NCBI GenBank assembly: GCA_964389905.1
Contig: CAYMGD010000007.1
Span: 483 to 64,482, forward strand
DNA length: 64,000 bases
Source: an uncultured Coprobacillus sp.
GTDB lineage: Bacteria > Bacillota_I > Bacilli_A > ML615J-28 > CAG-698
Direction: 5' to 3'
Position numbers and translations under genes: made by a program. The notes beneath the pieces are model-generated. The model had not been told where the DNA came from. It did no database searches and worked only from the letters and a program-made list of their open reading frames with translations. Each line of letters opens with the position of its first letter. The stretch's first letter is position 1. This document shows positions 2,848-33,651 of this stretch, piece after piece.

Positions 2848-3520
2848 TAGTTTATTTGAAAGTTCAACGCAAAATACCTTATCAGTGGGAATATTTCTTT
2901 TATGTGTGTTATTCTCATTAATTGATGGAATTATAGTTTGTCTTGCATATCTAGTAAAAAATGAAACAACTAAAAGTTTTAAACTATCCCTAATGATACT
3001 TCCAACAATTGTTTGTGTCGTGATAATGATGGTTAATGGAAACATTGGTGTTGGCGTAGCAGTTGCAGGAGCATTTAGTCTCGTACGTTTTCGTTCTGCA
3101 CCAGGAAGCGCCAAAGAAATATGCGTTATATTTGCGGGAATGTGTGCAGGATTGATTGCTGGTGTGGGATACATTGCATATTCGTTATTATTCTCTATTC
3201 TAATAGGATTATTAATAATTGTTCTAAATATCCTTTTACAAATCTCAGACAAGAAAAATACTTCAATAGTCCTAAAAATTACAATTCCAGAAGACTTAGA
3301 ATATAATGAAGTATTTACTGATTTGTTTAAAGATTATACTAAAGGCTATTCATTGATATCTGTAAAGACAACAAATATGGGAAGTTTATATAAACTAAAA
3401 TATAAAGTTAAACTAAATAATGTTAATGAAGAAAAAGAATTTATTGATAAAATTAGAATGCGTAATGGCAATTTAGAAGTTGCTATACTAAAAACCGAAT
3501 TTTCGGAAAATGATTTATAA
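2834..3520 (+). CDS. DUF4956-family membrane protein
   Basis: Four or five hydrophobic segments and the motif FSLVRFRSA. Overlaps the VTC gene by 14 nt. GGAGGA RBS. Confidence 0.6.
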   Translation: MEIFNSLFESSTQNTLSVGIFLLCVLFSLIDGIIVCLAYLVKNETTKSFKLSLMILPTIVCVVIMMVNGNIGVGVAVAGAFSLVRFRSAPGSAKEICVIFAGMCAGLIAGVGYIAYSLLFSILIGLLIIVLNILLQISDKKNTSIVLKITIPEDLEYNEVFTDLFKDYTKGYSLISVKTTNMGSLYKLKYKVKLNNVNEEKEFIDKIRMRNGNLEVAILKTEFSENDL

Positions 3521-3550
3521 AAAAATAGGCTGATTCCAACCTATTTTTTT
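3521..3550. terminator. Bidirectional AT-rich hairpin between convergent genes
   Basis: AAAAATAGG-ctgattccaa-CCTATTTTT, with A-run and T-run flanks serving both strands. Confidence 0.5.
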
Positions 3551-3559
3551 ACATTATTT

Positions 3560-4951
3560 CTATTCATTAACAATTTTGTTAATTCTTTTTGTAAGTTTGG
3601 TAATATTATACCCTTCAATTTTCCTTATTGCATCTGTTAGAATCCTATCTTTTATAGCTGCAGCAGATTCTTTCACTTTATCCGCATTATCCATAATAGA
3701 TTCTGAAAGCTTACAAATTTTTTCTACTTCTTTATCGATTCTTCCAAAACACCTTGTAATAATATTCTCCTTAAAATTTTCAAATTCTTCTTTTATTTCT
3801 TCGGAAGATTTAAACTTTTCTCTTTCTTCGTTTTTCTCAAGTATTAGTTCTTGATATTTTTTTCCTAAACTCTCAATAAGACTCAGAAAAGTGATAAAAT
3901 ATTGAGGTCTTACAACATACATCTTTTCATAGCCAAATACTTTTCGTATTGGAGCATCATTTTCTTGGTTCCATTCAAGTTCACTTATAAGTAGAGCATA
4001 TTCACAATTTTTCTTTTCACGATCTTTATCTAGTTTCTTATAATGATCTTCATTTTTCTTCTTATTTTTAGATAGTGGATCTTCATTTTTCATTTCACAT
4101 ACAACTGATGATAATAAGTTTTCATCTTCATATTTATCTGATGAATAAACTTTAAAAATATAATCAGCTTTTGTTTTCTCTCCATCATCTCCTCGCACAG
4201 CAAGATTATCTTTTTCCCAAACACAATTAGTAAAGCCGCTAACAGCATGTGATTGATATTCATTGTTACACCAATTTTCTAATTCTTCACCTAATTGTTT
4301 TACGTTTTTTGAAGATTTTGCAAGCTTAAGATTATCTATTTCTTTCTCTTTTTTACTTAATTCATCTTTAAAAGCAACTTCTTTTTCTGATAATATTTTA
4401 GCTTTTTCAAGTTCAGCTTTTTCTTTGATATTTTCAAGTTCATTCTTTAACTTTGTTATTTCATTATCTTTGGCATTACATTTATCATTAAATTCATTTT
4501 TAGTACGAAGAATAACATTTTGAATTTGATTTTCGTTTTCTCTTTTAATATTTTCAATTTGATTCTTATAATTATTTATCTCTGTTTCAAGTTTATTTAT
4601 TTCTTTATTATGTTTTATTTCCTCTTCTTTTTTTGTTTTTTCTTCTATATTTTTAAGTTGTTCTTTTAATAAAATATTGTCTGAATTTAATTTTTCTTTT
4701 ATGTTATTAAACTCTTCTCTTTCTTGTGCTTTTGCTTCTTTAACCTTACTTTCAATTTCTTTTCTAAAACTTTTTTCTTGCTCATCTAAACGCTTTTGAA
4801 ATTTTCTTTCAACATCTTTATCAATAATTTCTTTTATATATATAGCATCTATTGTTGTAATATCTCTTAAATCTATATAATCACCTTTTTTAGCATCTTC
4901 CTCTAACACAATAGTATTTTGATCTTTTACAATAACTTTTATAGAACTCAT
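3560..4951 (-). CDS. DUF2130-family protein (long K/E-rich coiled coil plus C-terminal PD-(D/E)xK-like domain, RmuC-like architecture)
   Basis: C-terminal block (ADYIFKV...CEMKNE...KKKNEDHYKKLDKDREKKNCEYALLIS...MYVVRPQYFI) matches my recollection of DUF2130. GGAGG RBS and an extended -10 (TGaTATAAT, -10 at 4973-4978) lie upstream. Confidence 0.7.
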   Translation of the reverse strand: MSSIKVIVKDQNTIVLEEDAKKGDYIDLRDITTIDAIYIKEIIDKDVERKFQKRLDEQEKSFRKEIESKVKEAKAQEREEFNNIKEKLNSDNILLKEQLKNIEEKTKKEEEIKHNKEINKLETEINNYKNQIENIKRENENQIQNVILRTKNEFNDKCNAKDNEITKLKNELENIKEKAELEKAKILSEKEVAFKDELSKKEKEIDNLKLAKSSKNVKQLGEELENWCNNEYQSHAVSGFTNCVWEKDNLAVRGDDGEKTKADYIFKVYSSDKYEDENLLSSVVCEMKNEDPLSKNKKKNEDHYKKLDKDREKKNCEYALLISELEWNQENDAPIRKVFGYEKMYVVRPQYFITFLSLIESLGKKYQELILEKNEEREKFKSSEEIKEEFENFKENIITRCFGRIDKEVEKICKLSESIMDNADKVKESAAAIKDRILTDAIRKIEGYNITKLTKRINKIVNE

Positions 4952-5013
4952 AATTTATCCTCCATATAATTCATTATATCATTTTTTTTACTATTTTGCT
5001 ATAAAAAAAGATA

Positions 5014-5064
5014 TTTATCTAAAAAACACTTACCAAACGATAAAATCGTAAGATAAGTGTTATT
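5014..5064 (-). repeat. Direct-repeat copy 1, a rho-independent terminator hairpin on the minus strand
   Basis: 51 nt, identical to 7304..7353 except for one extra A in an A-run. Minus strand reads CACTTATCTTACGAT-TTT-ATCGTTTGGTAAGTG followed by TTTTT(T). Overlaps the stop of the 5063..5779 gene. Confidence 0.85.
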
Positions 5065-5779
5065 AATTCAAATTGTCTTGTTTTATCAAATCAAATATAA
5101 TAGAAATATTACTACACTGTTTTATTGAATTGCTATCACTAAATATATAGTTCCAACTCTCTTTATAATCATTTGGTATATCATTCATTGTTTTTCTTAA
5201 GATTTTCTCAAAGCCTAATGCATCAAGTTTATATTGCTTGTCAAACAAGTTCGATAATTTAATTTTTTGTTCGAGTGTAGCATTTTCTATTCCATACAAT
5301 GCGTGTTCCAAATTTCTTGAAAAATAGAACTTATAATATTTTATTCCACAAATTATATTTGTTTCAAATAGTTTCTTATATATTAATCGTTTTTTTTCAA
5401 ATCTTTTAGAAAAATATTCCTTATTATTAGTAAATAGTTTATTATCACAAAACTTATTAGCATAAAGTGAACTATCTTCAATTATTGATTTATCATCTAT
5501 AAATGCCCCATCTGTGTCAATAATGTGTACAATAGCTATATAATCTGTGCAAAACAAAAAATTTTTCTTTTTATGCTGGTCAATAATTTTTTCTATGCTT
5601 TTTATGCAATTATTCTCATTAATATTATCTTTATATGCTAAGTCTCCTGAGGTGACTTCAACAATTATATTTTTTATGTAATTATTAAAATAGTTTTTTA
5701 GCGATCTGTGAAGGGTAATATCGTCACTATCACCTTCACAAATTACAAATAAAATTTTAGGACTATTCTTCCTTTCCAT
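5063..5779 (-). CDS. Small TOPRIM-like (RloB / DUF4435-class) protein, second gene of the ATPase cassette
   Basis: 238 aa. Motifs in order: N-terminal ILFVICEGDSDD, central VHIIDTDGAF (DxD), then FSRNLEHALYG, as in TOPRIM/RloB-like proteins. Start overlaps the ATPase stop by 17 nt. Confidence 0.55.
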   Translation of the reverse strand: MERKNSPKILFVICEGDSDDITLHRSLKNYFNNYIKNIIVEVTSGDLAYKDNINENNCIKSIEKIIDQHKKKNFLFCTDYIAIVHIIDTDGAFIDDKSIIEDSSLYANKFCDNKLFTNNKEYFSKRFEKKRLIYKKLFETNIICGIKYYKFYFSRNLEHALYGIENATLEQKIKLSNLFDKQYKLDALGFEKILRKTMNDIPNDYKESWNYIFSDSNSIKQCSNISIIFDLIKQDNLN

Positions 5780-7172
5780 ATAAATATAAATCTCCTGCGT
5801 CTTTTAATGCCCTATATATTTCATATTCATCTATTGGATTTGATAAGTTTAATTCTCCTAAATATAAATCTCTTAAATATTTTTTTCTTAAATTATTCGT
5901 TTTCGCAACATATGGCATTTTTAGAAACCTATTTTCTTCATCATTTGTTGTAAAAATAATGTTTTCTTTAATTACTTCTAATGCGCGTAAGTTGTGTGAT
6001 GTAAATACCATTTGTCCAACACCTTTATCTTTAAAAACACTTAGAATATTCCCTAAGAGGAATTCAAAAATACCTGAATCCAATTCATCAATTATTAAAA
6101 TAGCATAAGGATTATTGAAAGCATCAACTAGTGAAGAAACAATTGATATTATTTTTTTTATTCCATCTGATTCTAAGTTTAATGGAATATTAAATTGGTC
6201 TTTTATCGAAACAAATTGATACCTGAAACAATACTCTCCATTTTGATCTGTTGTATCTCCCAAATTAAATAATGCTATTTTAGTTCCTGGAATCATTTTT
6301 TCTAGCACTAAATTTATCTCATTTATATATAAACTAATAGTTTTTTCGTATTTCTTTAGTAAAATTCCTTCACTAAATAATGATAATGCACCTTGTATTG
6401 AACTAACTTGACTGTTACTTTCGTTTTTATAGAAAAAGGGAATTGTATCTAAAGCAGCAATTTTACTTATTTCTCTATTATCATATAAATGATAATAATG
6501 TATGGAGTATATTCTCGCCATATCTATAAAATAACTAACATCTAAAAATTCTTTTGTATCAAAAAGTATTTTTTCAAATTCAGTGCTGAAAATAAAACTA
6601 CTATTGTTAGCTGTTCTTTGTCCCTTTAAATATATTAATTGGGGAAGTAAATTATTATTATCTTTAGTTAGTTTATTAAGGTTTGTTGATGGGCTTAAAA
6701 ATCTCATTAAATCACTGTCTTTTTTATTCACTTCAAAAATTGGTGCATTTTTTGTCCACACGTTGTCATTGTACTTTCGACGCCATAATCCTTCAGATGC
6801 TAATATTATTTTTCTATTTATATCGTCTTTTAAGAAATTTACATAATAATCATAAACATAGTTTTGTTCGTTACATTTGAAATAAACAGAAGCTTCAATT
6901 CTGCATATGTTGGATTTTTTTGAAATCTTCTCGTATAATTCATTATTAATTGTTTGCCCAGAAAAAATTGTTTTTAGAATTGAAAAGGCATTAATAATAG
7001 TTGATTTCGAACTACCATTAGGTCCATAGATACCTACAATATCAGATTTATCAAAGTTAAAAACACCATTTAATATTTTTTTATTTGATTCGAATTCTAT
7101 AGTTCCATCTTTTAAATTCATTAAGTTTTTAGCAGAAATCTTTAATATTCTAATATTACAATCCATAATCAT
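5763..7172 (-). CDS. ABC/SMC-type AAA ATPase (AAA_21/AAA_15-like), first gene of the cassette
   Basis: Walker A GPNGSSKST, signature-like ESDGIKK, Walker B AILIIDELDSG, H-loop FTSHN. Two SD-like sequences (AGGAGG, AAGGAG) lie upstream. The second ATG, at 7166, may be the true start. Confidence 0.85.
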   Translation of the reverse strand: MIMDCNIRILKISAKNLMNLKDGTIEFESNKKILNGVFNFDKSDIVGIYGPNGSSKSTIINAFSILKTIFSGQTINNELYEKISKKSNICRIEASVYFKCNEQNYVYDYYVNFLKDDINRKIILASEGLWRRKYNDNVWTKNAPIFEVNKKDSDLMRFLSPSTNLNKLTKDNNNLLPQLIYLKGQRTANNSSFIFSTEFEKILFDTKEFLDVSYFIDMARIYSIHYYHLYDNREISKIAALDTIPFFYKNESNSQVSSIQGALSLFSEGILLKKYEKTISLYINEINLVLEKMIPGTKIALFNLGDTTDQNGEYCFRYQFVSIKDQFNIPLNLESDGIKKIISIVSSLVDAFNNPYAILIIDELDSGIFEFLLGNILSVFKDKGVGQMVFTSHNLRALEVIKENIIFTTNDEENRFLKMPYVAKTNNLRKKYLRDLYLGELNLSNPIDEYEIYRALKDAGDLYLYGKEE

Positions 7173-7189
7173 AACTCCTTGACCTCCTA

Positions 7190-7218
7190 ATTATATCATA
7201 TTAAAAAATCATTGTCAA
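7190..7218 (-). promoter_or_regulatory. Perfect sigma-70/SigA consensus promoter of the cassette
   Basis: Minus strand reads TTGACA (7218-7213), a 17-nt spacer, then TATAAT (7195-7190), immediately followed by TAGGAGG. Confidence 0.65.
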
Positions 7219-7303
7219 TCTTTAACTTAATATTCGTATTTTTTATCGTTATTTCAGATTATATATTATATATTATTCGCATTATAGTTGAAAATATACA
7301 TTT

Positions 7304-7353
7304 TTTATCTAAAAACACTTACCAAACGATAAAATCGTAAGATAAGTGTTATT
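7304..7353 (-). repeat. Direct-repeat copy 2, terminator of the ABC-exporter operon
   Basis: 50 nt, the same sequence as 5014..5064. Lies 4 nt downstream of the stop of the 7358..9121 gene. Hairpin plus T-run on the minus strand. Confidence 0.85.
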
Positions 7354-7357
7354 TTAT

Positions 7358-9121
7358 TTAAATCACTTCGAATTGACTATTATATAATTCCGCATAAAAG
7401 CCATTTTGATTCATTAATTCATTATGGTTACCTTTTTCTATTACATCCCCATCACGCATTACTAAAATCAAATCTGCATTTTTGATTGTTGAGAGGCGAT
7501 GAGCAATAACAAAGCTTGTTCTTCCTTTCATTAATGTATCCATGGCATTTTGAATAATAACTTCGGTTCTTGTATCAACACTTGATGTTGCTTCATCAAG
7601 AATTAACATTGGCGAATTTTGAAGCATTGCTCGAGCAATAGTTAATAATTGTTTTTGCCCTGATGAGATTGATGTGCTTTCAGATAGTACTGTATCAAAT
7701 CCATGAGGAAGAGAATGAACAAATTTATCTAGGCCGCATAATTTACATACTCTTTCTAGTTCACTATCACTTATATCAGTCATATTATATACAAGATTTT
7801 CTCTAACTGTTCCTTCGAAAAGCCATGTATCTTGTAAAACCATAGCAAATATGTTATGAACATCTTCTCTCTTCATATCACTTATTGAAGTACCATCAAT
7901 GGTGATATTTCCGCTGTTTATTTCAAAGAACCTCATAAGAAGATTTACCATTGTTGTTTTACCTGCTCCTGTTGGACCAACAATTGCAACTTTTTGACCT
8001 GGTTTTATTTCAGCTGAAAAGTCTTTTATAATAACTTTATCTGGTGTATCAGGATAACTAAAACGAATATGCTCAAAGCATACACTTCCTTTGATTTCTT
8101 TTTCGCCACTTTCTTTATCGCTTTCATCACTTAACTCTTCTGCTTCAAGGAAATCAAAAATACGATGTGCTGAAGCTGAGGCTGTTTGTAAATTTGTTAA
8201 GCCTTGAGCAATTTGTGTTAATGGTGATGTAAACAAACGAACATAGAAGATAAATGCTACTATTACATCAAAACCTATTGTTCCTTGAATAGCAAAGATT
8301 GAACCAAACACACATACTGCTACATATGAAATATTTCCAATAACGCTCATTAAAGGTTGCATAATTCCAGATAAGAATTGTGATTTCCAGTTTGCATCAT
8401 AAACGTTCTTATTAAGTTTATCAAATGATTCTTTTGTCATTTGGTCAGCACGACTAATTTTTATAACTTCATGTCCTGAGTAGTTTTCTTCAATAAAACC
8501 ATTAAGTTCTCCTAAACTCCTTTGGCGAGCCGCAAAATGTCTTTGTGATTTACCCATTATAACTACAGTTAAAAGTAAGCCTACAATAGTTATTCCTAAT
8601 GATATTGAAGCTAATCGCCATTCTGTTACAAACATCATAATCAAACAACCGATAAATTGTGTTACAGCACTTATGATAGTTGGCAAACTATTAGTTAAGC
8701 CTTGTTGGAGAGTTGAAACATCATTTGTTATTCTACTTAAAATATCTCCTTGTGATGTTGTATTAAAGTATTTTTGAGGAACCAGATTAATCTTTCTTGA
8801 AAGTTCTGCTCTCATCTTATATGACATTTTAAGAGTTACCGTAGACATTATGTATTGTTCGATAAAACCAAATATCGCACTTAAACAATATAATATAAGA
8901 AGCATTATACCAATTTTTGATATAGCATCTATATCAATAGTTGTTAACAATCCATCAGAAATAATAGCTGCAATTTCACCCAGTTTATCAGGTCCTATAA
9001 TAGTAATTACTGAACTTAAGGCAGCAAGTATTAGAGCTATAATAACAAATACAATACTAGATTTTATATAATTAGAACTTCTTTTAATTGCTGAAGATAA
9101 ACTTTTCTTATTTTTTGCCAT
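7358..9121 (-). CDS. ABC exporter, fused permease/ATPase (type I, heterodimer partner)
   Basis: Six-TM N-terminal half, Walker A GPTGAGKTT, signature SSGQKQ, Walker B LILDEATS. Confidence 0.9.
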   Translation of the reverse strand: MAKNKKSLSSAIKRSSNYIKSSIVFVIIALILAALSSVITIIGPDKLGEIAAIISDGLLTTIDIDAISKIGIMLLILYCLSAIFGFIEQYIMSTVTLKMSYKMRAELSRKINLVPQKYFNTTSQGDILSRITNDVSTLQQGLTNSLPTIISAVTQFIGCLIMMFVTEWRLASISLGITIVGLLLTVVIMGKSQRHFAARQRSLGELNGFIEENYSGHEVIKISRADQMTKESFDKLNKNVYDANWKSQFLSGIMQPLMSVIGNISYVAVCVFGSIFAIQGTIGFDVIVAFIFYVRLFTSPLTQIAQGLTNLQTASASAHRIFDFLEAEELSDESDKESGEKEIKGSVCFEHIRFSYPDTPDKVIIKDFSAEIKPGQKVAIVGPTGAGKTTMVNLLMRFFEINSGNITIDGTSISDMKREDVHNIFAMVLQDTWLFEGTVRENLVYNMTDISDSELERVCKLCGLDKFVHSLPHGFDTVLSESTSISSGQKQLLTIARAMLQNSPMLILDEATSSVDTRTEVIIQNAMDTLMKGRTSFVIAHRLSTIKNADLILVMRDGDVIEKGNHNELMNQNGFYAELYNSQFEVI

Positions 9122-10887
9122 TATTCCCCTCCTTTTGATAACTCATTTTCACTTAATTGTGATTTAGCTATCTCTTGATATACAGTACAATTTTTAATTA
9201 ATTCTTGATGCTTTCCAATGCCTACTATTTCGCCTTTTTCGAGTACAATAATCTTATCAGCATTACGAATTGTACCAATTCTTTGAGCAACAATTATTTT
9301 TGTTGTATCATTATATTTTTCTAAAAGTTTTTCACGCAAAAGAGCATCAGTACGAAAATCTAAAGCTGAAAACGAATCATCAAAAATAAGAATTTCTGGG
9401 TTTCTAGCTAAAGCTCTAGCAATTGAAAGTCTTTGTTTTTGGCCACCTGACACATTACGACCAAGTTGAGCTATATGGTAATCTGATTTTTCTTTTTTCT
9501 TCTCAACAAATTCTTTTGATTGTGATACTTCTAATGCCTTTTCTAGATCTTCATCTGTAAAGTTTTCTTTAGCGTTTCCAAAGAATATGTTATCCTTGAT
9601 TGTTCCTGAAAAGAGCACTGCTTTTTGGGTAATATATCCTAGCTTATTATATAAAGCTGAGAATTTATAATCTTTAACATTAACTCCATCGACAAGAACA
9701 CTTCCTTCTGTTACATCATATAAACGAGGAATTAAGCTTATTAAAGTGGTTTTTCCGCTTCCTGTTGCCCCAATTATAGCTAATGTTTCTCCTTTATTAA
9801 TTTTAAAATTAATATTTGATAATTCACGTTCACTAGAACCAGCATATTTAAAACTAACATTTCTAAATTCAACGCTTCCTTCTTCTAATCCTTCTTCGAC
9901 GCTTCCTTCTTCGATTTCAGCTTTTTTGCTTAAAACTTCATTTATACGCTCCGCAGAAACTTGTGCTTGAGGAGCCATCATAAATATCATAACTAACATC
10001 ATAAAAGACATTACAATGTAAGTTGCATAAGTACTAAAAGCTAATATCTCACTAAACATTGCTACTCGTTCGGCAGCATTTATTACCGATATATTATTAA
10101 CTAATGCTGCTCCAACCCAATATATAGCTAGAGATAATCCACTCATTCCCAAACTCATAGTTGGACTTATTAAAGCAAACATTCTTTGATTTTTAATTTG
10201 TAAGTTAAACATTTCTTTGCTAGGCTTGTCAAATTTATCATTTTGATATTCTTCAGCATTAAAAGCATGAACAACATTTATTCCTGTTAAGTTTTCACGG
10301 GCTACACGATTAATTTTATCTGTCATCTTTTGGACTTTTCTAAACCTTGGAATACAAATACTCATAACAATGAATACTATAGAACAAATTGCAACAACAA
10401 AAATTGCTGTAACGATTGACAACTGCCAGCTTTTGCCTAGGATTTTAATAATTGCCCAAATAGCCATTATTGGTGCTTTAATAAACATCTGTAATCCCAT
10501 CGAAACTAACATTTGTACTTGCGTAATATCATTAGTTGTTCTTGTAATCAAGCTAGGAATAGAAAATTCCTGCATTTCTTCTTTACCTAAATCAATTACA
10601 TGATAGAATAATTTTTTTCTAACTGTGTAACTAAAACCAGAAGCTGTTTTTGCTGCCAAGAAACCACATATAACTGCTAACACACCACTTGTTAAGGCGC
10701 AAGCAATCATTTTCAAACCAACTTCAACAATCGCATCAGTTGTCCCTGATGTTTTTATTAGTTTGGTTAATTCAGTCATATAATCAGGCAATAATAAATC
10801 AAAATATACTTGACCAATTATCAGTACGCAGCATATAATTGTCATTATAATTTCTTTTTTTTGTAAATTCTTTAATAGTTTTACCAT
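9121..10887 (-). CDS. ABC exporter, fused permease/ATPase (heterodimer partner)
   Basis: TM domain, Walker A GATGSGKTT, signature SGGQKQR, Walker B LIFDDSFS. Its stop codon overlaps the start codon of the downstream partner by one nucleotide. Confidence 0.9.
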   Translation of the reverse strand: MVKLLKNLQKKEIIMTIICCVLIIGQVYFDLLLPDYMTELTKLIKTSGTTDAIVEVGLKMIACALTSGVLAVICGFLAAKTASGFSYTVRKKLFYHVIDLGKEEMQEFSIPSLITRTTNDITQVQMLVSMGLQMFIKAPIMAIWAIIKILGKSWQLSIVTAIFVVAICSIVFIVMSICIPRFRKVQKMTDKINRVARENLTGINVVHAFNAEEYQNDKFDKPSKEMFNLQIKNQRMFALISPTMSLGMSGLSLAIYWVGAALVNNISVINAAERVAMFSEILAFSTYATYIVMSFMMLVMIFMMAPQAQVSAERINEVLSKKAEIEEGSVEEGLEEGSVEFRNVSFKYAGSSERELSNINFKINKGETLAIIGATGSGKTTLISLIPRLYDVTEGSVLVDGVNVKDYKFSALYNKLGYITQKAVLFSGTIKDNIFFGNAKENFTDEDLEKALEVSQSKEFVEKKKEKSDYHIAQLGRNVSGGQKQRLSIARALARNPEILIFDDSFSALDFRTDALLREKLLEKYNDTTKIIVAQRIGTIRNADKIIVLEKGEIVGIGKHQELIKNCTVYQEIAKSQLSENELSKGGE

Positions 10888-10904
10888 TAATTAACCTCCT
10901 CGTA

Positions 10905-11357
10905 TTAATAATTATTATTCCAAACATCATCGATATTTTTCTTAAGCATTACAAATACCCGTTGTAGTGCTCCTACATCTTCAGTACTAATACCTTCTAA
11001 TAATCTTTCTGAGAAATCTGTTTGAATAACTTTTCCCTGCTCAACAATTGGTTCAGCAACATTAGTTAGTTCAAGCACTACTTTTCTTCTATCATTAGGA
11101 TCATCTAATCGTTTCAAATATCCATCTTTTACAAGTCTATCAATATGTACTGACACAATTCCAGCCTTTAAACCTCTAAATTTGCATATATCTTTAGCTG
11201 TTGCGTTAACAGGATTATTTGCAATAAACAAAAGAATATCAACTGCCAAAGGTGGTAAATCATAGTTTCGACATATTGGTTGTAATAAAAAGTGATATGA
11301 TTCGATTAGTTTACTAGCATTCTCAAATACTTCTGACATTTTGAAATTTTTATTCAT
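10905..11357 (-). CDS. MarR-family transcriptional regulator
   Basis: 150 aa with winged-HTH wording (DRLVKDGYLKRLDDPNDRRKVVLELT). Sits upstream of the two ABC exporter genes. Confidence 0.85.
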   Translation of the reverse strand: MNKNFKMSEVFENASKLIESYHFLLQPICRNYDLPPLAVDILLFIANNPVNATAKDICKFRGLKAGIVSVHIDRLVKDGYLKRLDDPNDRRKVVLELTNVAEPIVEQGKVIQTDFSERLLEGISTEDVGALQRVFVMLKKNIDDVWNNNY

Positions 11358-11378
11358 ATATTTCTTCCCCTTTTTATT

Positions 11379-11414
11379 AATATTAGATATTCTAATATTA
11401 GAATATCTAATATT
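11379..11414. promoter_or_regulatory. Perfect 36-bp palindrome, probable MarR operator
   Basis: AATATTAGATATTCTAAT|ATTAGAATATCTAATATT is exactly self-complementary. Lies between a -10 TATAAT (11423-11428, with -35 TTGCTT at 11446-11451 on the minus strand) and the marR start. Confidence 0.6.
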
Positions 11415-11720
11415 GCTACAATATTATATACTTATTAATATAATAAAGCAAGTATTATTTTTAAAACTATATACACACACAAACAAAAATGTCATAAATT
11501 TCTTGATATTTTTATTATTTATATTTTTGTTATATTCATACATTTTTATTATTTGTTAACAAAAGAGTTGGTTTTTAAATACGCATCTAAATATGAAGTT
11601 TTTCATTTACAAAACTGTAGTAAATCAAGAAAAATTTGTTAATTTTTATTAAAAAGAAAAGAAAAACGTGTTATTATTCATTGAAAAAAAGTGTTATACT
11701 ATTTTTATCAATTAAATAGG

Positions 11721-13025
11721 ATGGTGATATTCTTGAAACGAAATGCAATTTATGAACTTAATAAATGGAAAAATGATCCTGAACGCAAACCTATTGTACT
11801 TAGAGGTGCAAGGCAAGTCGGCAAAACTTGGTTAATGAAAGAATTTGGAAAAAACTATTATGAAGACTTTGTTTACTTTAACTTTGATGAAGATGATGAA
11901 CTTAAGTCAATATTTGAAATAAATAAAAATCCACATCGCATTATTGATTTACTTTCTATGATTAGTAATAAGAAAATTGAACCCGAAAGAACATTAATCA
12001 TTTTTGATGAAATTCAAGAATGTCCTGATGCTTTAAATACTCTTAAGTACTTTAAAGAAAAAGCTAATGAATATCATGTTATTGCTGCAGGAAGCCTTCT
12101 TGGCACACTTCGTGCAAAACCAAAATCATATCCTGTGGGAATGGTAAATCTTTTAGATATTAATCCTTTAACTTTTAGCGAATTTTTAGAAGCTACAGAT
12201 GTAAATCTATATACTTATTATGAAAGTATAAAAAAAGACCAACAAATTGAGGAAATTTTTCATAATCGTTTATTAGAAGCATACAATTATTATCTTATTA
12301 TTGGAGGTATGCCTGAATGTGTTTCATCATGGATCAAATACAAAGATCCTCTTAAAGTATCACAAATTCAAAAAGAACTTATTGAACTTTATGAGAATGA
12401 TTTTTCCAAACACAATGGAAAAATTAATAGTGGCCGCATTCTTATGGTATTTCGTAGTATTGTTTCTCAACTAGCTAAATCTAATGAGAAGTTTATGTAT
12501 GGAGCTGTACGTGAAGGCGGAAGAGCAAGAGATTTTGAAGAAGCAATTGAGTGGCTTGTTTCGGCAGGAATACTAAATCGTATTTATAATGTATCAAAGA
12601 TGGAGCATCCATTATCAGCCTTCGATAAACTTAATCAATTTAAACTTTTTGTATTCGATACAGGTCTTCTTAAACATATGGCTGGTATTGACAATAGTGC
12701 AATACTTTTAAAAAAAGACTTTCAGTTTAAAGGCCCCCTTACTGAAAATTATGTTCTCCAACAACTTCGCGGACAATTTGCTGTTGAACCAAGATATTAT
12801 TCAGACAAAGGAAATGAAATTGATTTTATAGTACAATATGGTATGGAAATAATTCCGATTGAAACAAAAGGTGGTGAAAATAAATCCGCTCCATCTTTTA
12901 AGAAATATATTACTGAACATAAACCAAAATATGCTTTTCGTTTTTCTAAGCGTGGTTATCGCAAAGATGGTAGTTTTACAAATCTTCCCCTTTATTTAGT
13001 TCAAAAAATGAAAGAATTATTATGA
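11721..13025 (+). CDS. AAA_14 + DUF4143 family ATPase
   Basis: Walker A GARQVGKTW, Walker B IIFDEIQ, C-terminal DUF4143-like region (NEIDFIV...IPIETKGG). The start is ambiguous: ATG 11721, or TTG 11733 after AGGATGGTGA. Confidence 0.8.
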   Translation: MVIFLKRNAIYELNKWKNDPERKPIVLRGARQVGKTWLMKEFGKNYYEDFVYFNFDEDDELKSIFEINKNPHRIIDLLSMISNKKIEPERTLIIFDEIQECPDALNTLKYFKEKANEYHVIAAGSLLGTLRAKPKSYPVGMVNLLDINPLTFSEFLEATDVNLYTYYESIKKDQQIEEIFHNRLLEAYNYYLIIGGMPECVSSWIKYKDPLKVSQIQKELIELYENDFSKHNGKINSGRILMVFRSIVSQLAKSNEKFMYGAVREGGRARDFEEAIEWLVSAGILNRIYNVSKMEHPLSAFDKLNQFKLFVFDTGLLKHMAGIDNSAILLKKDFQFKGPLTENYVLQQLRGQFAVEPRYYSDKGNEIDFIVQYGMEIIPIETKGGENKSAPSFKKYITEHKPKYAFRFSKRGYRKDGSFTNLPLYLVQKMKELL

Positions 13026-28556: not shown

Positions 28557-28722
28557 AGCTTTTACCTCCTCATTTGGTACATCATAGTAAAAGAAAAGTA
28601 GGCGCAATATGCACCCACTAAAACTAATCACAAATCAAAATGATGTTATAAGTGACATTTACCTATTGATATTTTCAATCAGGTGAGAAGTGGGTACTTC
28701 TTCTTTCCACTATGATATTTAC
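28557..28722 (-). promoter_or_regulatory. infC-rpmI-rplT leader with terminator/antiterminator (L20-leader-like attenuator)
   Basis: Terminator AGUGGGUGC-auauu-GCGCCUACU plus UUUCUUUU at 28619-28586. An upstream ACCCACU (28695-28689) is complementary to the terminator 5-prime arm. Confidence 0.55.
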
Positions 28723-29255
28723 TTGTATATTATACAACAATTTAATGTGTTTGTCAATTGTTTTTTTATCAATTGACACTGTTTTTTATCAACAGTAAGC
28801 ATTTTATTAGAATATAATTTATTTAACTTATTGTATGTTTTCCCAAGTTCTATATTATGGCGATATACTTTCATCTCATATATTTCTTCAACACTATATG
28901 GAAGATTATAAAGGCTTTCACGAGTTATTATAACATAATAATTACTAGTATTACGTATTGTTCTCGCAAACTCTTCACTCTTTATAAATTTATTTCCTTC
29001 ATCAATAAATATGATACTATCTTCAATCCTTTCAATACGAGCTTGCCAATCATTCGTTGTTAATACATGACATTTTTTATCACATTTAATCTTAACACCA
29101 CTTAGTTTACCAAGTTCTTCATAATCAGAAATCAAATTAATAAGAGTTGTTTTACCTGTAGCACTATTTCCTCGAATAATAGTTATATTCCTAGTAATAT
29201 CAAATTTAAATGAAATTTTTTGATTACTTATTTCTATGTGATATTTTCCAACCAT
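28719..29255 (-). CDS. Mini P-loop ATPase (178 aa), partner of the DUF4869-like gene
   Basis: Walker A GNSATGKTT, Walker B IIFIDEG, then YYVIITRES. GAGGTG RBS. Starts 11 nt after the upstream stop. Confidence 0.7.
   Translation of the reverse strand: MVGKYHIEISNQKISFKFDITRNITIIRGNSATGKTTLINLISDYEELGKLSGVKIKCDKKCHVLTTNDWQARIERIEDSIIFIDEGNKFIKSEEFARTIRNTSNYYVIITRESLYNLPYSVEEIYEMKVYRHNIELGKTYNKLNKLYSNKMLTVDKKQCQLIKKQLTNTLNCCIIYK
28729..28757 (-). promoter_or_regulatory. Perfect consensus promoter for the infC operon
   Basis: Minus strand reads TTGACA (28757-28752), a 17-nt spacer, then TATAAT (28734-28729). Lies inside the last codons of the upstream ATPase ORF. Confidence 0.65.
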
Positions 29256-29266
29256 ATAAACACCTC

Positions 29267-29701
29267 TTAAACATATTTTCCAGCAGTCAAAACCAAATCT
29301 CGCATATTATTAATCATTTTCTTTTCATTAAGTACATATACATTAAATTCTTTACCAAAATCCATTATATGGTTTAAATTAATAGTTATGTCTTTTTCCT
29401 CAGCAAGTTTAAGCAATCATTTTGCGCAGTTATCACCACATGTAGATGCATTAAAAACATTTTTTGAATCATTTCTAATTAAAATTAATGTTTTAACGCC
29501 TCCCGATAAACTTGTAGGTGGAATAATTCCCAAATAGGGACTATCAATTGCTCTTTCGCCTATAACTTTTGAATTATCAACATCTTCAATCATTTTTTGT
29601 GTTAAAGGATCAAGAAGCCATTTTTCTTTATATATATTTTTAAAATATATTTCAGTGTTGTAAATAGCTTTAGGCATATCACCAAAAAAAATGTTTAGCA
29701 T
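29267..29701 (-). pseudogene. DUF4869-like gene (145 codons) with a single in-frame TGA at codon 95; a recent pseudogene or a TGA read-through
   Basis: The ORF track ends at CGDNCAK*, with TGA at 29419-29417. The same frame continues for 49 more sense codons (LLKLAEEKDITINLNHIMDFG...) to TAA at 29269-29267. The N-terminal MLNIFFGDMP...LSGGVKTLILI resembles DUF4869 as I recall it. Confidence 0.6.
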
Positions 29702-29736
29702 TTTTTCACCCCAAAAATTTCATTATTTTTTAACTA

Positions 29737-29765
29737 ATTTTACTATAAAAAATAAAAAATATCAA
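29737..29765 (-). promoter_or_regulatory. Putative promoter of the DUF4869/ATPase pair
   Basis: Minus strand reads TTGATA (29765-29760), a 17-nt spacer, then TAAAAT (29742-29737). Confidence 0.35.
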
Positions 29766-29841
29766 TATCAAAGTAATTAATACAATGATAATTTATTTAC
29801 ATCAATGCAATTATACATACTAGAAAAAGGCATTTAAGCCT

Positions 29842-31431
29842 TTATAATTGTTCGAATATTTTCGTTCCTTTTTTCTTTAAATATACTAATAATATTATAT
29901 TAATAGCCATAGTTAATAAAATAAATAATGATACGTACATATAAGCATTAATATATTGTTGAAGAAAAGCATATATTACTGAAAATACAATAACATATAT
30001 CCAGCCTGCAAAGAGTGTAATAACTACACCTATACTTTGTTTTACTGGTACAACTTCACTATTCCAGTTTAGTATTGGCATTTTTAAGTTTATTACAAGG
30101 CCAAATAATGCCGATAGCATAACACAAATAATACCTGTTATGATCATTAATAAACCTTGAATAAAAGATATTTCAATCGAAAACAAAGTGCATATGCATA
30201 CAAATAACACTCCAGGAAGGGTAATTATTAGGTGTAACACTATTTTTGATTTTAAAATATCCCAAGTTTTAATTGGTAAAGTTTGTAATACCCAAATGTT
30301 TCTTCCTTCTAACGAGATTGAAGGAGATGTTATATCATTCATCATCGCTAGAAAGACTGTGGAAAGTGTTAAGATTAAGAATTGTGCATTTTCTAAATTG
30401 ATTTGCTTTAGTGTTTCATTCAAGAAACTACCTTTAAATATTATATATATTCCCATTATTAGCATAAATAATGTTCCTATTCCACAATTCAATATGTAAA
30501 TTGGAGATGAAAAAAAGTGTTTTAGTTCCTTTTTTACTAAAGAAACTCGCTTATTATTCTTTTGATATTTCAAATTCTTTTTTACTTGTTTTGCTTTGGT
30601 ATCATTTGTTGTTACTATTTTAATGAAACTATGTGATAACAACACATATTCAATTAAGAATAGTCCTAATACAATAATGGTAAAGACTACAGATGAGAGT
30701 ATGTCTCCTGTTCCCATCATCCCCATTGCATAGAAAGGATAAACATATGACTTTATTATTTTTGCAGTGGCAGCACTATCACTTACTAATTTTGTTATTA
30801 AATTACTTATTTCAAAATAGCAATAATAATAAACAAATATGAAAAGAAGTGAAGCTATTACAATAACAAGACTTTTGTTTTTTAGTTTAGCACTTATTTT
30901 CGCAACTACATATCCTAATAAACAAGATAAAACTAAAACAAATATTGTAATTAAAATATATAACAATAACGATGTAATAACACTTATTATAGTCACATTA
31001 CCATATATATAATATACTATTAATGCTGGTATCATTACCACACTTGAGTATAACCAGCCCATAAAATATACACCTATTAATCTTGTGATTAAAATATATT
31101 TTGTAGGTATTGGCATTGATAGTAATATATCATTATCTTTAGCTTGATACAGACTTGAATATGTATTGAAGATGCTTCCAAAGGCTCCAAAAACGATTGC
31201 TAGTCCACTCATCATTGTAAAGTATAACCACATAAGATCAGCTTCTTTGAATGCTTTACACATCATCAGTGCTGGTTCTACAAAGATACAAGCCACAAAT
31301 ATCATTAGTATAGCAAATAATAATATATATAATATTTGTTTTCCTTTCGTGAAACTTTCACCTGTTTTCTTACTGACAAAAAAGCTTTTATTAATTTCTA
31401 ATAATTGCTTTTTGATAAGGGCTTTAAGCAT
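29842..31431 (-). CDS. Large polytopic ABC-2-like transporter permease
   Basis: 529 aa with more than ten hydrophobic segments. Its start overlaps the stop of the ABC ATPase gene. Confidence 0.7.
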   Translation of the reverse strand: MLKALIKKQLLEINKSFFVSKKTGESFTKGKQILYILLFAILMIFVACIFVEPALMMCKAFKEADLMWLYFTMMSGLAIVFGAFGSIFNTYSSLYQAKDNDILLSMPIPTKYILITRLIGVYFMGWLYSSVVMIPALIVYYIYGNVTIISVITSLLLYILITIFVLVLSCLLGYVVAKISAKLKNKSLVIVIASLLFIFVYYYCYFEISNLITKLVSDSAATAKIIKSYVYPFYAMGMMGTGDILSSVVFTIIVLGLFLIEYVLLSHSFIKIVTTNDTKAKQVKKNLKYQKNNKRVSLVKKELKHFFSSPIYILNCGIGTLFMLIMGIYIIFKGSFLNETLKQINLENAQFLILTLSTVFLAMMNDITSPSISLEGRNIWVLQTLPIKTWDILKSKIVLHLIITLPGVLFVCICTLFSIEISFIQGLLMIITGIICVMLSALFGLVINLKMPILNWNSEVVPVKQSIGVVITLFAGWIYVIVFSVIYAFLQQYINAYMYVSLFILLTMAINIILLVYLKKKGTKIFEQL

Positions 31432-32667: not shown

Positions 32668-33651
32668 TTATTTCACCTCGTATAATTTTAAAGATCCACT
32701 CTTGGTATCTACAGTAATATCTCTTTCTTGGTTTCCTATTTGATAATAAGTTCCATCAAATAACACCTTCATTCCACTTGTTTTGAAACTTCTAGAGGAT
32801 GTTTTAAAAAGTATTTTTCCAGAAGATGAGGATAGTATTCCAAGTTTTATTCCTCCGCTAGTTGTTTTTAGATTATATTCTTTACTTTCATCAAGAAAAA
32901 CCTTAACTCCACCACTTGTTGATTGTATATTTAGTTTTTCTGCAGTATTATTACCTACAGAAATACTTCCTGATGTACTTTTTAATTCGCATATTTGTGT
33001 ATAAAGTTCATCTATTTCAATTTCACCACTTGTTGAAGAGCATATAATATTATCAGCTTTCAAAGATTTTGCTTCAATTTCGCCACTTGTTGAGGAAAAC
33101 TTGATAAAACTTGCTTCTATTTTAGCTGTTTCAATTTCTCCACTTGTTGAGGAAAGAGAAAGATTATCGCATTCAAGATTATCTAGTTCGATACTTCCAG
33201 ATGTCGTATTAATATCAACATTTTTAGCTTTTCTAATATTATTATAAACTTCAGCACTTGTTGAAGAAATATAAATATTTATCCCTTCTGGGACATAAAC
33301 CTTAATATTCTTTTTTTCACTTCTTACTTTCGAAGTAAATCCTGAATCCCAAAAGTGAATTATCAGTTCACCATTTTTTACAATTGTTCGTACTTTTTGT
33401 TTTTCTTCTAGTTCATTACTTTCTTCGATAGAAATGCTATTGTCAGCTGATTTTATAATTTTAACATTTCCTGTTTTCCAGTTCATATTTAATGTATCAA
33501 TGTTATCATTATACTTTATCGAACCAACATTAAATTTATCAGCATCATCATATTTATCATAAGATATATAGCTATTTTCAAAGCTATCACACTGACAACC
33601 TAAATTGATAGAAAGTATCACTAATAATAATATAATTGTTATTCTATTCAT
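32668..33651 (-). CDS. DUF4097-family beta-strand-repeat lipoprotein
   Basis: Signal/lipobox NLGC. Recurring (S/T)TSG(E/S/G)I(E/K) repeats about every 19-20 aa. Confidence 0.75.
   Translation of the reverse strand: MNRITIILLLVILSINLGCQCDSFENSYISYDKYDDADKFNVGSIKYNDNIDTLNMNWKTGNVKIIKSADNSISIEESNELEEKQKVRTIVKNGELIIHFWDSGFTSKVRSEKKNIKVYVPEGINIYISSTSAEVYNNIRKAKNVDINTTSGSIELDNLECDNLSLSSTSGEIETAKIEASFIKFSSTSGEIEAKSLKADNIICSSTSGEIEIDELYTQICELKSTSGSISVGNNTAEKLNIQSTSGGVKVFLDESKEYNLKTTSGGIKLGILSSSSGKILFKTSSRSFKTSGMKVLFDGTYYQIGNQERDITVDTKSGSLKLYEVK

Follow-up and report, generated by a model that had tools for sequence, protein, structure and literature searches.

Insertion with long target duplication has been described for restriction-modification (R-M) gene complexes (Nobusato et al. 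2000, Gene 259:99; Furuta, Abe and Kobayashi 2010, NAR, PMC2853133). The target duplications in the R-M cases are 46–423 bp long and unique in the genome, empty sites are present in related strains, and mobility genes are absent; the repeats often span a stop or start codon, so that the target gene survives, and in two H. influenzae cases 46-bp repeats overlap the 3′ end of a gene by 2 and 15 bp (PMC2853133). Terminators and hairpins are not mentioned in that report, which also leaves the mechanism open. The locus considered here has a similar anatomy. It lies in a stretch of 64,000 nucleotides (nt) from an uncultured Coprobacillus sp. (contig CAYMGD010000007.1), referred to below as the window, and consists of a cassette of two overlapping genes, encoding a 469-residue ABC-type ATPase and a 238-residue protein with a TOPRIM-like signature, bracketed by two almost identical copies of a 50/51-nt sequence that has the characteristics of a transcription terminator. 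The cassette separates an ABC exporter gene from a DUF2130 gene, and we consider, with a probability of about 0.75, that the locus represents an insertion with long target duplication; this figure applies to that claim and to neither of the sub-mechanisms discussed below.

Positions 5014–5064 (copy 1, 51 nt) and 7304–7353 (copy 2, 50 nt) form a direct repeat, seen both on reading the sequence and in a repeat search, in which the sole difference is one A, located in an A-run that has six residues in copy 1 (5021–5026) and five in copy 2 (7311–7315). With up to 3 mismatches allowed, the 33-nt core common to the copies (5027–5059 and 7316–7348) occurs exactly twice in 64 kb, compared with an expectation of zero from 100 shuffles; the window has no other long direct repeat that is near-exact, the remaining repeat families being diverged coding paralogues. 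The edges of the repeat are sharp, since the bases adjoining each end differ between the copies. In the 120-nt flanks of the two copies homology is at the level of chance, with an upstream alignment score of 10 (null mean 10.1) and a downstream score of 14, a value that 7.6% of random pairs attain. These chance-level alignments also rule out a duplication that continues into the coding ends of the ABC exporter or of the cassette.

All genes at the locus are on the minus strand, and on this strand both copies fold as CACUUAUCUUACGAU-UUU-AUCGUUUGGUAAGUG, followed by U6 in copy 1 or U5 in copy 2. The hairpin (5027–5059 and 7316–7348, respectively) has 15-bp arms, a 2 × 2 internal loop, and a 3-nt loop, with centroid energies of −16.5 and −17.0 kcal/mol and z-scores of −5.4 and −4.2; none of 200 shuffled sequences was as stable. 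The repeat therefore has the stable hairpin, the U-run, and the placement after a stop codon of a rho-independent terminator, and we regard it as a predicted intrinsic terminator; it should be noted that a simple terminator scanner listed neither copy, which we attribute, presumptively, to the internal loop in the stem. The stop codon of the ABC exporter gene (7358–7360) and the start of copy 2, the predicted terminator of a MarR-ABC-ABC operon, are 4 nt apart. Copy 1, which appears to end the cassette transcript, overlaps the TAA stop codon (5063–5065) of the gene for the 238-residue protein by 2 nt and adds a second in-frame TAA. A preliminary description, made from the letters of this DNA, had reported a 51/50-nt direct repeat with a single A of difference and is correct in every detail in this respect; the terminator fold that it drew on the minus strand is borne out by the folding energies, z-scores, and shuffles, and its placement of copy 2 at 4 nt from the exporter stop and of copy 1 across the stop of the TOPRIM-like gene agrees with the coordinates and with the 2-nt overlap.

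The DNA between the copies (5065–7303, minus strand) amounts to 2,239 nt, comprising a promoter region and the two overlapping genes, and is absent from the two relatives that have the flanking genes side by side. The species is seldom encountered in public data, and the nearest relatives of the window's DUF2130 gene and ABC exporter are single Logan contigs. The most informative of these, L012 (4.4 kb, SRR25400515), is 86–89% identical to the window in nucleotide sequence, encodes the same MarR-ABC-ABC operon, and has 91% amino acid identity in the ABC exporter and 80% in the N terminus of DUF2130. Its order is ABC exporter, one terminator copy, DUF2130 promoter, and DUF2130, with no cassette, and it reads ...GAAGTGATT TAA ATAA [AATAACACTTATCTTACGATTTTATCGTTTGGTAAGTGTTTTTCAGATAAA] TATCTTTTTTTATAGC...TGCTATAAT...ATG(DUF2130), where the bracketed part is the single terminator copy. 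In blastn alignments, L012 1–4002 corresponds to window 11303–7304 and L012 3942–4381 to window 5073–4636; the two alignments overlap in L012 by 61 nt because its single copy aligns with both window copies, and the upstream flank of copy 2 and the downstream flank of copy 1 are contiguous around it. The exact 33-mer is present once in L012, and when positions 5065–7353 are removed, the window is colinear with L012, with 57 of 58 positions identical in the segment containing the stop codon and the repeat. The polymorphism is thus an indel made up of the 2,239 nt and one copy of the 50-nt sequence.

The second relative, L005 (SRR10277276), has 91% amino acid identity in the C-terminal 204 residues of the ABC exporter and 75% in DUF2130; the two genes are adjacent, again with no cassette, and are separated by a 204-nt spacer containing a different, longer hairpin with a U6 run together with the conserved DUF2130 promoter. 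The presence of an unrelated terminator at the same place in L005 independently supports termination as the native function of the site. This hairpin has ∼27 pairs and is unrelated in sequence to the window terminator, and the same spacer contains a tandem duplication at L005 629–670 (ATATCAAATTTAATTTAA twice); on these comparisons, terminators at the ABC-DUF2130 site appear to turn over quickly between lineages. A third Logan contig, L006 (SRR10277269), contains the 3′ end of the cassette running into the repeat with 99.8% identity to the window, in a second, independent sample, and breaks within the repeat. Exact-protein look-ups with the window DUF2130 protein and ABC exporter gave no match, and a scan of genome contigs with DUF2130 gave relatives with at most 53% identity, the best being Coprobacillus sp. 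CAG:698, which is unusable as an empty site because the ABC operon is absent.

The preliminary description had proposed that relatives be searched for an empty site with a single repeat copy between the ABC exporter and the DUF2130 gene, and such a site is present in L012. The arrangement in L012 also supports the ancestral locus that it had envisaged (ABC exporter, terminator, DUF2130 promoter), and its further proposal, that a roughly 2.3-kb cassette of a promoter and two genes was inserted at the terminator and duplicated it, is supported by the single copy in L012 and the empty site in L005. Judged from the predicted features, the ancestral order shown by these comparisons is the ABC exporter, 4 nt, the 50-nt terminator, the 62-nt DUF2130 promoter and ribosome-binding site (RBS), and DUF2130, and a putatively foreign segment of 2,239 nt, with its own consensus promoter and overlapping two-gene operon, is shown as inserted in the window lineage. 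Neither neighboring gene is broken; from the anatomy of the locus, copy 2 would still terminate the ABC operon, whereas copy 1 would end the strongly promoted cassette, provide its stop codon, and shield the DUF2130 promoter from read-through.

The locus shares several properties with the R-M long target duplications. The inserted unit, here one of putative defense genes, is small (2,239 nt, compared with less than 20 kb in the R-M cases) and has no mobility genes; the direct repeats exceed 30 bp (50/51 nt with one indel here); the single copy at the empty site, here that of L012, aligns to both repeats and to the outer flanks; and the repeats lie at a gene end, with no gene broken. With regard to the uniqueness criterion of Furuta et al. 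2010, the count covers the 64 kb of the window, which hold two copies of the repeat, together with the JGI metagenome contigs and IMG/VR, where no copy was found.

The age of the event can be approached through the sequences around it. The single repeat copy in L012 is itself identical to the window at 49 of 50 positions, and the near-identity of the two window copies is therefore a weak clock. However, a 267-nt tract of the window (7402–7354 joined to 5064–4847) differs from L012 3897–4170 at only 5 positions (98.1% identity), with no changes over 105 nt of DUF2130 coding sequence and the 49-nt end of the ABC exporter (its final codons with the stop, and the 4-nt spacer), whereas the genes around this tract are 86–87% identical to L012, a level that predicts ∼35 differences. 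It follows that the common ancestor of the empty and the occupied allele is recent, probably as a result of homologous exchange between lineages. The tract resembles a short, recent homologous-recombination tract centered on the insertion point. On this sequence comparison, the cassette was gained (or lost) recently relative to the split of the window and L012 genomes. A recent event had been argued previously from the near-identity of the repeat copies; recency is upheld by the 98% tract, but repeat identity does not serve well as a clock. Comparison of the composition and codon usage of the cassette with those of its flanks, which had been suggested at the same time, did not mark the insert as foreign: its GC content is 0.244 compared with 0.286 for the window (z-scores of −1.2 to −1.6), and GC at third codon positions is normal.

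The surroundings of the insert were searched for signatures of mobility. Neither the insert nor the genes around it, from ∼5 kb on the DUF2130 side to ∼16 kb on the ABC exporter side, include an integrase or transposase gene (the stretch is bounded at one end by a two-component system and VTC/DUF4956 genes and at the other by glycogen genes ∼16 kb away), consistent with the earlier statement that neither accompanies the cassette. The termini of the insert are identical at 10 of 30 positions when an inverted repeat is anchored there, and the best local score, 12, equals the 95th percentile of the null; a transposon or nonautonomous insertion sequence (IS) derivative, including an IS1630-like one, is ruled out by the lack of terminal inverted repeats and of a transposase gene. 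There is no tRNA gene in the window and no Rfam family in positions 3000–12000. The locus also does not conform to an island flanked by attachment (att) sites and inserted by site-specific recombination, as there is no recombinase in or adjacent to it and no tRNA or tmRNA target, and the 50-mer does not occur elsewhere in the collections searched. An integron cassette is ruled out by the absence, on inspection of both strands, of an attC core (RYYYAAC ... GTTRRRY) and by the absence of IntI nearby. When the repeat was searched for as a 33-mer or 25-mer, two copies were found in the window, one in L012, and none in the JGI metagenome contigs or in IMG/VR; a dispersed element is rejected on these counts, which also answer the suggestion in the preliminary description that the 50-nt sequence be looked for elsewhere. 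The repeat is also not intrinsic to the cassette family, as the best local scores at six other cassette loci are 10–13, compared with 47 here.

Self-driven movement of the element is argued against by the lack of a recombinase gene, of terminal inverted repeats, and of a tRNA-type att site. The duplicated target completes the stop codon of the cassette, which suggests that the right-hand junction was formed by illegitimate joining at or inside a gene end rather than at a dedicated element end. The route to the duplication that we tentatively prefer is illegitimate break repair, in which linear incoming DNA would have been ligated into a break in the chromosome with ends, staggered or hairpin-processed, that overlapped across the terminator palindrome, and fill-in would have left one terminator copy on each side. 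A nearly as likely, and likewise only possible, route is a Campbell-type single crossover by RecA in the 50-nt sequence, in which the chromosome would have recombined with a circular or concatemeric 2.29-kb form with one repeat copy, the circle junction of which would read ...CAATTTGAATT-[50-mer]-AAATGTATATTTTC...; this would account for spread and for reversible excision but would leave the first event unexplained. The coincidence of duplication and terminator is not in itself mechanistic evidence because, in a 118-nt spacer (4 nt, terminator, and promoter/RBS), any harmless duplication of at least 30 nt must cover the terminator. A more general idea, which we regard as doubtful, is that terminator hairpins are preferred entry points of an insertion pathway that needs no recombinase and copies the terminator in full, and that the cassette nuclease might provoke the break. 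If this were true, small nuclease-bearing defense operons would install themselves as insulated transcription units and may leave as circles by way of the repeats; the nuclease provoking the break would be the TOPRIM/OLD-like protein here and the restriction enzyme in the published cases.

Site-specific integration in trans would provide a different explanation for the repeats. The 50-nt block would then be the identity segment of att sites, with the terminator as attB and attP on a small circular cassette, and a tyrosine or serine recombinase would act from elsewhere in the genome on a recombinase-less element mobilized in cis, comparable with cis-mobilizable elements (CIMEs), pseudo-SCC elements, and Xer-dependent modules; a circular junction ..GAATT-[repeat]-AAATGTAT.. 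is predicted. Sharp-edged, identical direct repeats around an island are a classic signature of such a process, the imperfect palindrome in the repeat could hold two recombinase-binding arms, and the empty site has exactly one copy, but this explanation appears unlikely in view of the lack of a recombinase in the insert and the surrounding genes scanned, the lack of spare sequence in an insert of 2,239 nt whose last gene has its stop codon inside the repeat, the failure to find the 33-mer or 25-mer elsewhere in the collections searched, and the lack of such repeats at homologous cassettes elsewhere. Recombinase sites usually have 6–8-bp spacers, a layout that the 15-nt arms and 3-nt loop do not resemble. 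The polarity of the event might also be the reverse, with the two-terminator cassette being ancestral and L012 and L005 having lost it by recombination between the 50-nt repeats. Deletion between direct repeats yields exactly the structure of L012, and the 98% tract, which indicates a recent separation of alleles, is on its own as compatible with loss as with gain. Nevertheless, L005 lacks any remnant of the cassette and has a different and longer terminator, relatives further away that possess the same ABC operon or DUF2130 have other neighbors and no cassette, and members of the cassette family are dispersed over unrelated contexts, as would be expected of horizontally moving genes; furthermore, an earlier insertion would still be needed to make the duplication, and we consider an ancestral cassette rather improbable.

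It is very improbable that the cassette was inserted by chance between pre-existing dispersed repeats, such as a terminator resembling a repetitive extragenic palindrome (REP) or a miniature inverted-repeat transposable element (MITE), or that the window is an assembly chimera formed at a shared sequence of 44–50 nt. Intergenic repeats that contain hairpins are common in bacteria, the window appears to belong to a 67-kb contig of metagenomic origin, and L006 breaks in the repeat, but only two copies are present in 64 kb, none is found in the public collections scanned, and L012 has one copy rather than two. Both junctions are contained in the window, and the junction of cassette and repeat is seen independently in the second sample; moreover, the break in L006, inside an exact repeat of 44 nt, is what would be expected of a short-k-mer de Bruijn assembly if the repeat is real.

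Several considerations weigh against insertion with target duplication as formulated here. The empty sites come only from relatives at 80–89% nucleotide identity, none of them of the same species, and loss of the cassette by repeat recombination in those relatives would give the same picture in L012. Composition gives the insert no foreign mark. None of the six other loci of the cassette family has flanking repeats, so that the event is singular and does not reveal a general mechanism, and no sequence feature separates break repair from the integration of a circle. The defense function of the cassette and the assignment of the 238-residue protein as a nuclease are predictions, and the Foldseek matches of the latter have TM scores of at most 0.45.

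The ATPase (AAA_21/AAA_23 type; 5763–7172, minus strand) has AbiLi as its best match among the PADLOC defense models (2.6e-29), with AriA next (4.2e-16), and matches Pfam AAA_21 at 3e-12; comparison with PDB sequences gave only generic ABC P-loop matches. The gene for the 238-residue protein (5063–5779, minus strand) overlaps the ATPase gene by 17 nt. Residues E15, D19, G45-D46, H85, D88-T-D90, N156, and H159 of this protein are conserved, and E15, D88, and D90 are invariant in its family, giving a TOPRIM-like E...DxD signature. Searches of Pfam, NCBIfam, and PADLOC returned nothing above threshold, and there was no sequence match to the AbiLii, AriB, RloB, or DUF4435 models. The sub-threshold Pfam matches are Toprim (0.026) and DUF4276 (0.11), and one family member gives Toprim at 1e-3 and OLD-like_TOPRIM at 1.7e-3, both below the cut-off; the designation of the gene as TOPRIM-like in the preliminary description is consequently supported by the motifs and by sub-threshold matches but not by a database assignment. 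Matches to integrin I-domains in a PDB sequence-profile search were rejected as spurious. The AlphaFold model of the protein is confident (pLDDT 90), and its best Foldseek match in a viral library is an RloB-like phage protein, with a probability of 0.99 but a weak TM score of 0.41–0.45; we take RloB to be a Pfam family that includes AbiLii. Against the PDB, no Foldseek match was obtained at E ≤ 1e-3, the best being a weak one (E 5.8e-3, TM 0.19) to 8ux9_A, a 306-residue chain of a PARIS complex entry. The cassette is accordingly described as a putative anti-phage module of the AbiL/RloAB/PARIS class, with the second gene as a candidate member.

The family of the 238-residue protein is large (1,588 representatives at E ≤ 1e-3 and 551 at E ≤ 1e-30 in an exhaustive profile search), yet it has no Pfam, NCBIfam, or PADLOC model. 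At the loci examined elsewhere, its members always follow an AAA_21-type ATPase, usually with overlapping genes, and the contexts of the pair are unrelated, including chromosomal housekeeping genes, a restriction-enzyme/KAP-NTPase neighborhood, and a Ruminococcus albus megaplasmid. The homologues have tails that are 2–8 residues longer, and different in sequence, after ...IKQD. One member (P0318, 279 residues) has a ribosomal protein L7/L12 C-terminal domain fused at its C terminus (Pfam E 8.4e-20), which could be either a true chimera or a fusion produced by gene calling. Homologues of both cassette genes are present on the R. albus plasmid pRUMAL01 (L022 3605–5696), ∼1 kb downstream of a tyrosine recombinase gene, and a homologue of the ATPase with 32% identity is encoded at 28722–30077 of Clostridioides phage pCD1602_4 (CP069348.1), a 132-kb record filed as phage. 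Extrachromosomal elements could be vehicles for the cassette family.

The cassette promoter (7190–7218, minus strand) lies in the 131-nt region between copy 2 and the ATPase gene and has the form TTGACA, 17 nt, TGnTATAAT, matching the σ70 consensus at 12 of 12 positions with an extended −10 element. Upstream of the insertion on the minus strand, the predicted operon begins with MarR (10905–11357) and continues with the first (9121–10887) and second (7358–9121) genes of the ABC exporter pair, the latter encoding a fused permease and ATPase and forming the upstream flank. The downstream flank is the DUF2130 gene (3560–4951, minus strand), preceded by its 62-nt promoter and RBS region (4952–5013, minus strand) with an extended −10 element, TGATATAAT, at 4973–4981; this region is conserved in L012 and L005 and is undamaged by the insertion. 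In the Coprobacillus sp. CAG:698 contig (L001 7154–11410, compared with window 7358–13025), DUF2130 is preceded by a 481-residue gene and then a 397-residue gene, the latter corresponding in position and length to the D-Ala-D-Ala carboxypeptidase gene; among the unannotated open reading frames (ORFs) of this contig, none of the size and position of MarR-ABC-ABC was seen, and there is no obvious counterpart of the AAA_14/DUF4143 ATPase gene (window 11691–13025, in the opposite orientation). The whole interval upstream of DUF2130, and not the cassette alone, looks variable. Elsewhere in the window, at 33013–33155, three tandem copies of a 29-nt motif with 57-nt spacing and 79–100% identity lie inside an ORF (32668–33651) and probably represent a repeated peptide module.

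Most small anti-phage systems lack mobility genes of their own, and their movement between chromosomes is poorly understood. The present locus is a neat natural instance of an insertion type already known and introduces no new principle, but it offers a clean before-and-after pair, with an empty and an occupied site in a background that is locally 98% identical. Long target duplication, so far documented for R-M systems, would be extended by it to a module of an ATPase and a TOPRIM-like protein in uncultured, gut-type Bacilli. It also indicates that a complete terminator can serve as the duplicated target, so that the newcomer has a stop codon and a terminator and the neighbors are undisturbed. 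This is a single example, which could prompt a survey into whether terminators and long target duplications coincide beyond expectation.

The cassette resembles AbiL (AbiLi/AbiLii), RloAB, and PARIS (AriA/AriB), which have been grouped as two-gene anti-phage systems that pair an ABC-ATPase with a TOPRIM/OLD protein (PMC13064643), in being an overlapping two-gene operon with the ABC/AAA_21 ATPase first and in having a second protein of ∼240 residues with E...DxD acidic motifs and weak fold matches to an RloB-like protein and a PARIS entry. It differs from them in that the second protein belongs to an unnamed family and has no sequence match to AbiLii, AriB, RloB, or DUF4435; no Lactococcus AbiL was found by tblastn. 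Islands borne by integrases, CIMEs, and integron cassettes share with the locus the flanking direct repeats, a hairpin site at the 3′ end of the cassette, and an empty site with one copy, but here there is no integrase, tRNA target, or attC R′/R″ consensus, and the array would consist of one cassette. An IS1630-like insertion is also comparable, and we take its host and that of the window to belong to the same broad low-GC group. As far as it is described where cited (1999, in PMC2853133), the IS1630-like insertion also copies an inverted-repeat (hairpin) target and not just a few bases; relative to that account, the window insert lacks a transposase and terminal inverted repeats, and its duplication (50 nt) is about twice as long. 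The differences from the R-M cases are in cargo, host, and target: the cargo is an ABC-ATPase and TOPRIM-like pair, whereas the original criterion names R and M genes; the host belongs to an uncultured low-GC lineage of Bacilli, in a different phylum; and the target is a complete predicted intrinsic terminator, the duplicate of which gives the cassette both its stop codon and its terminator.

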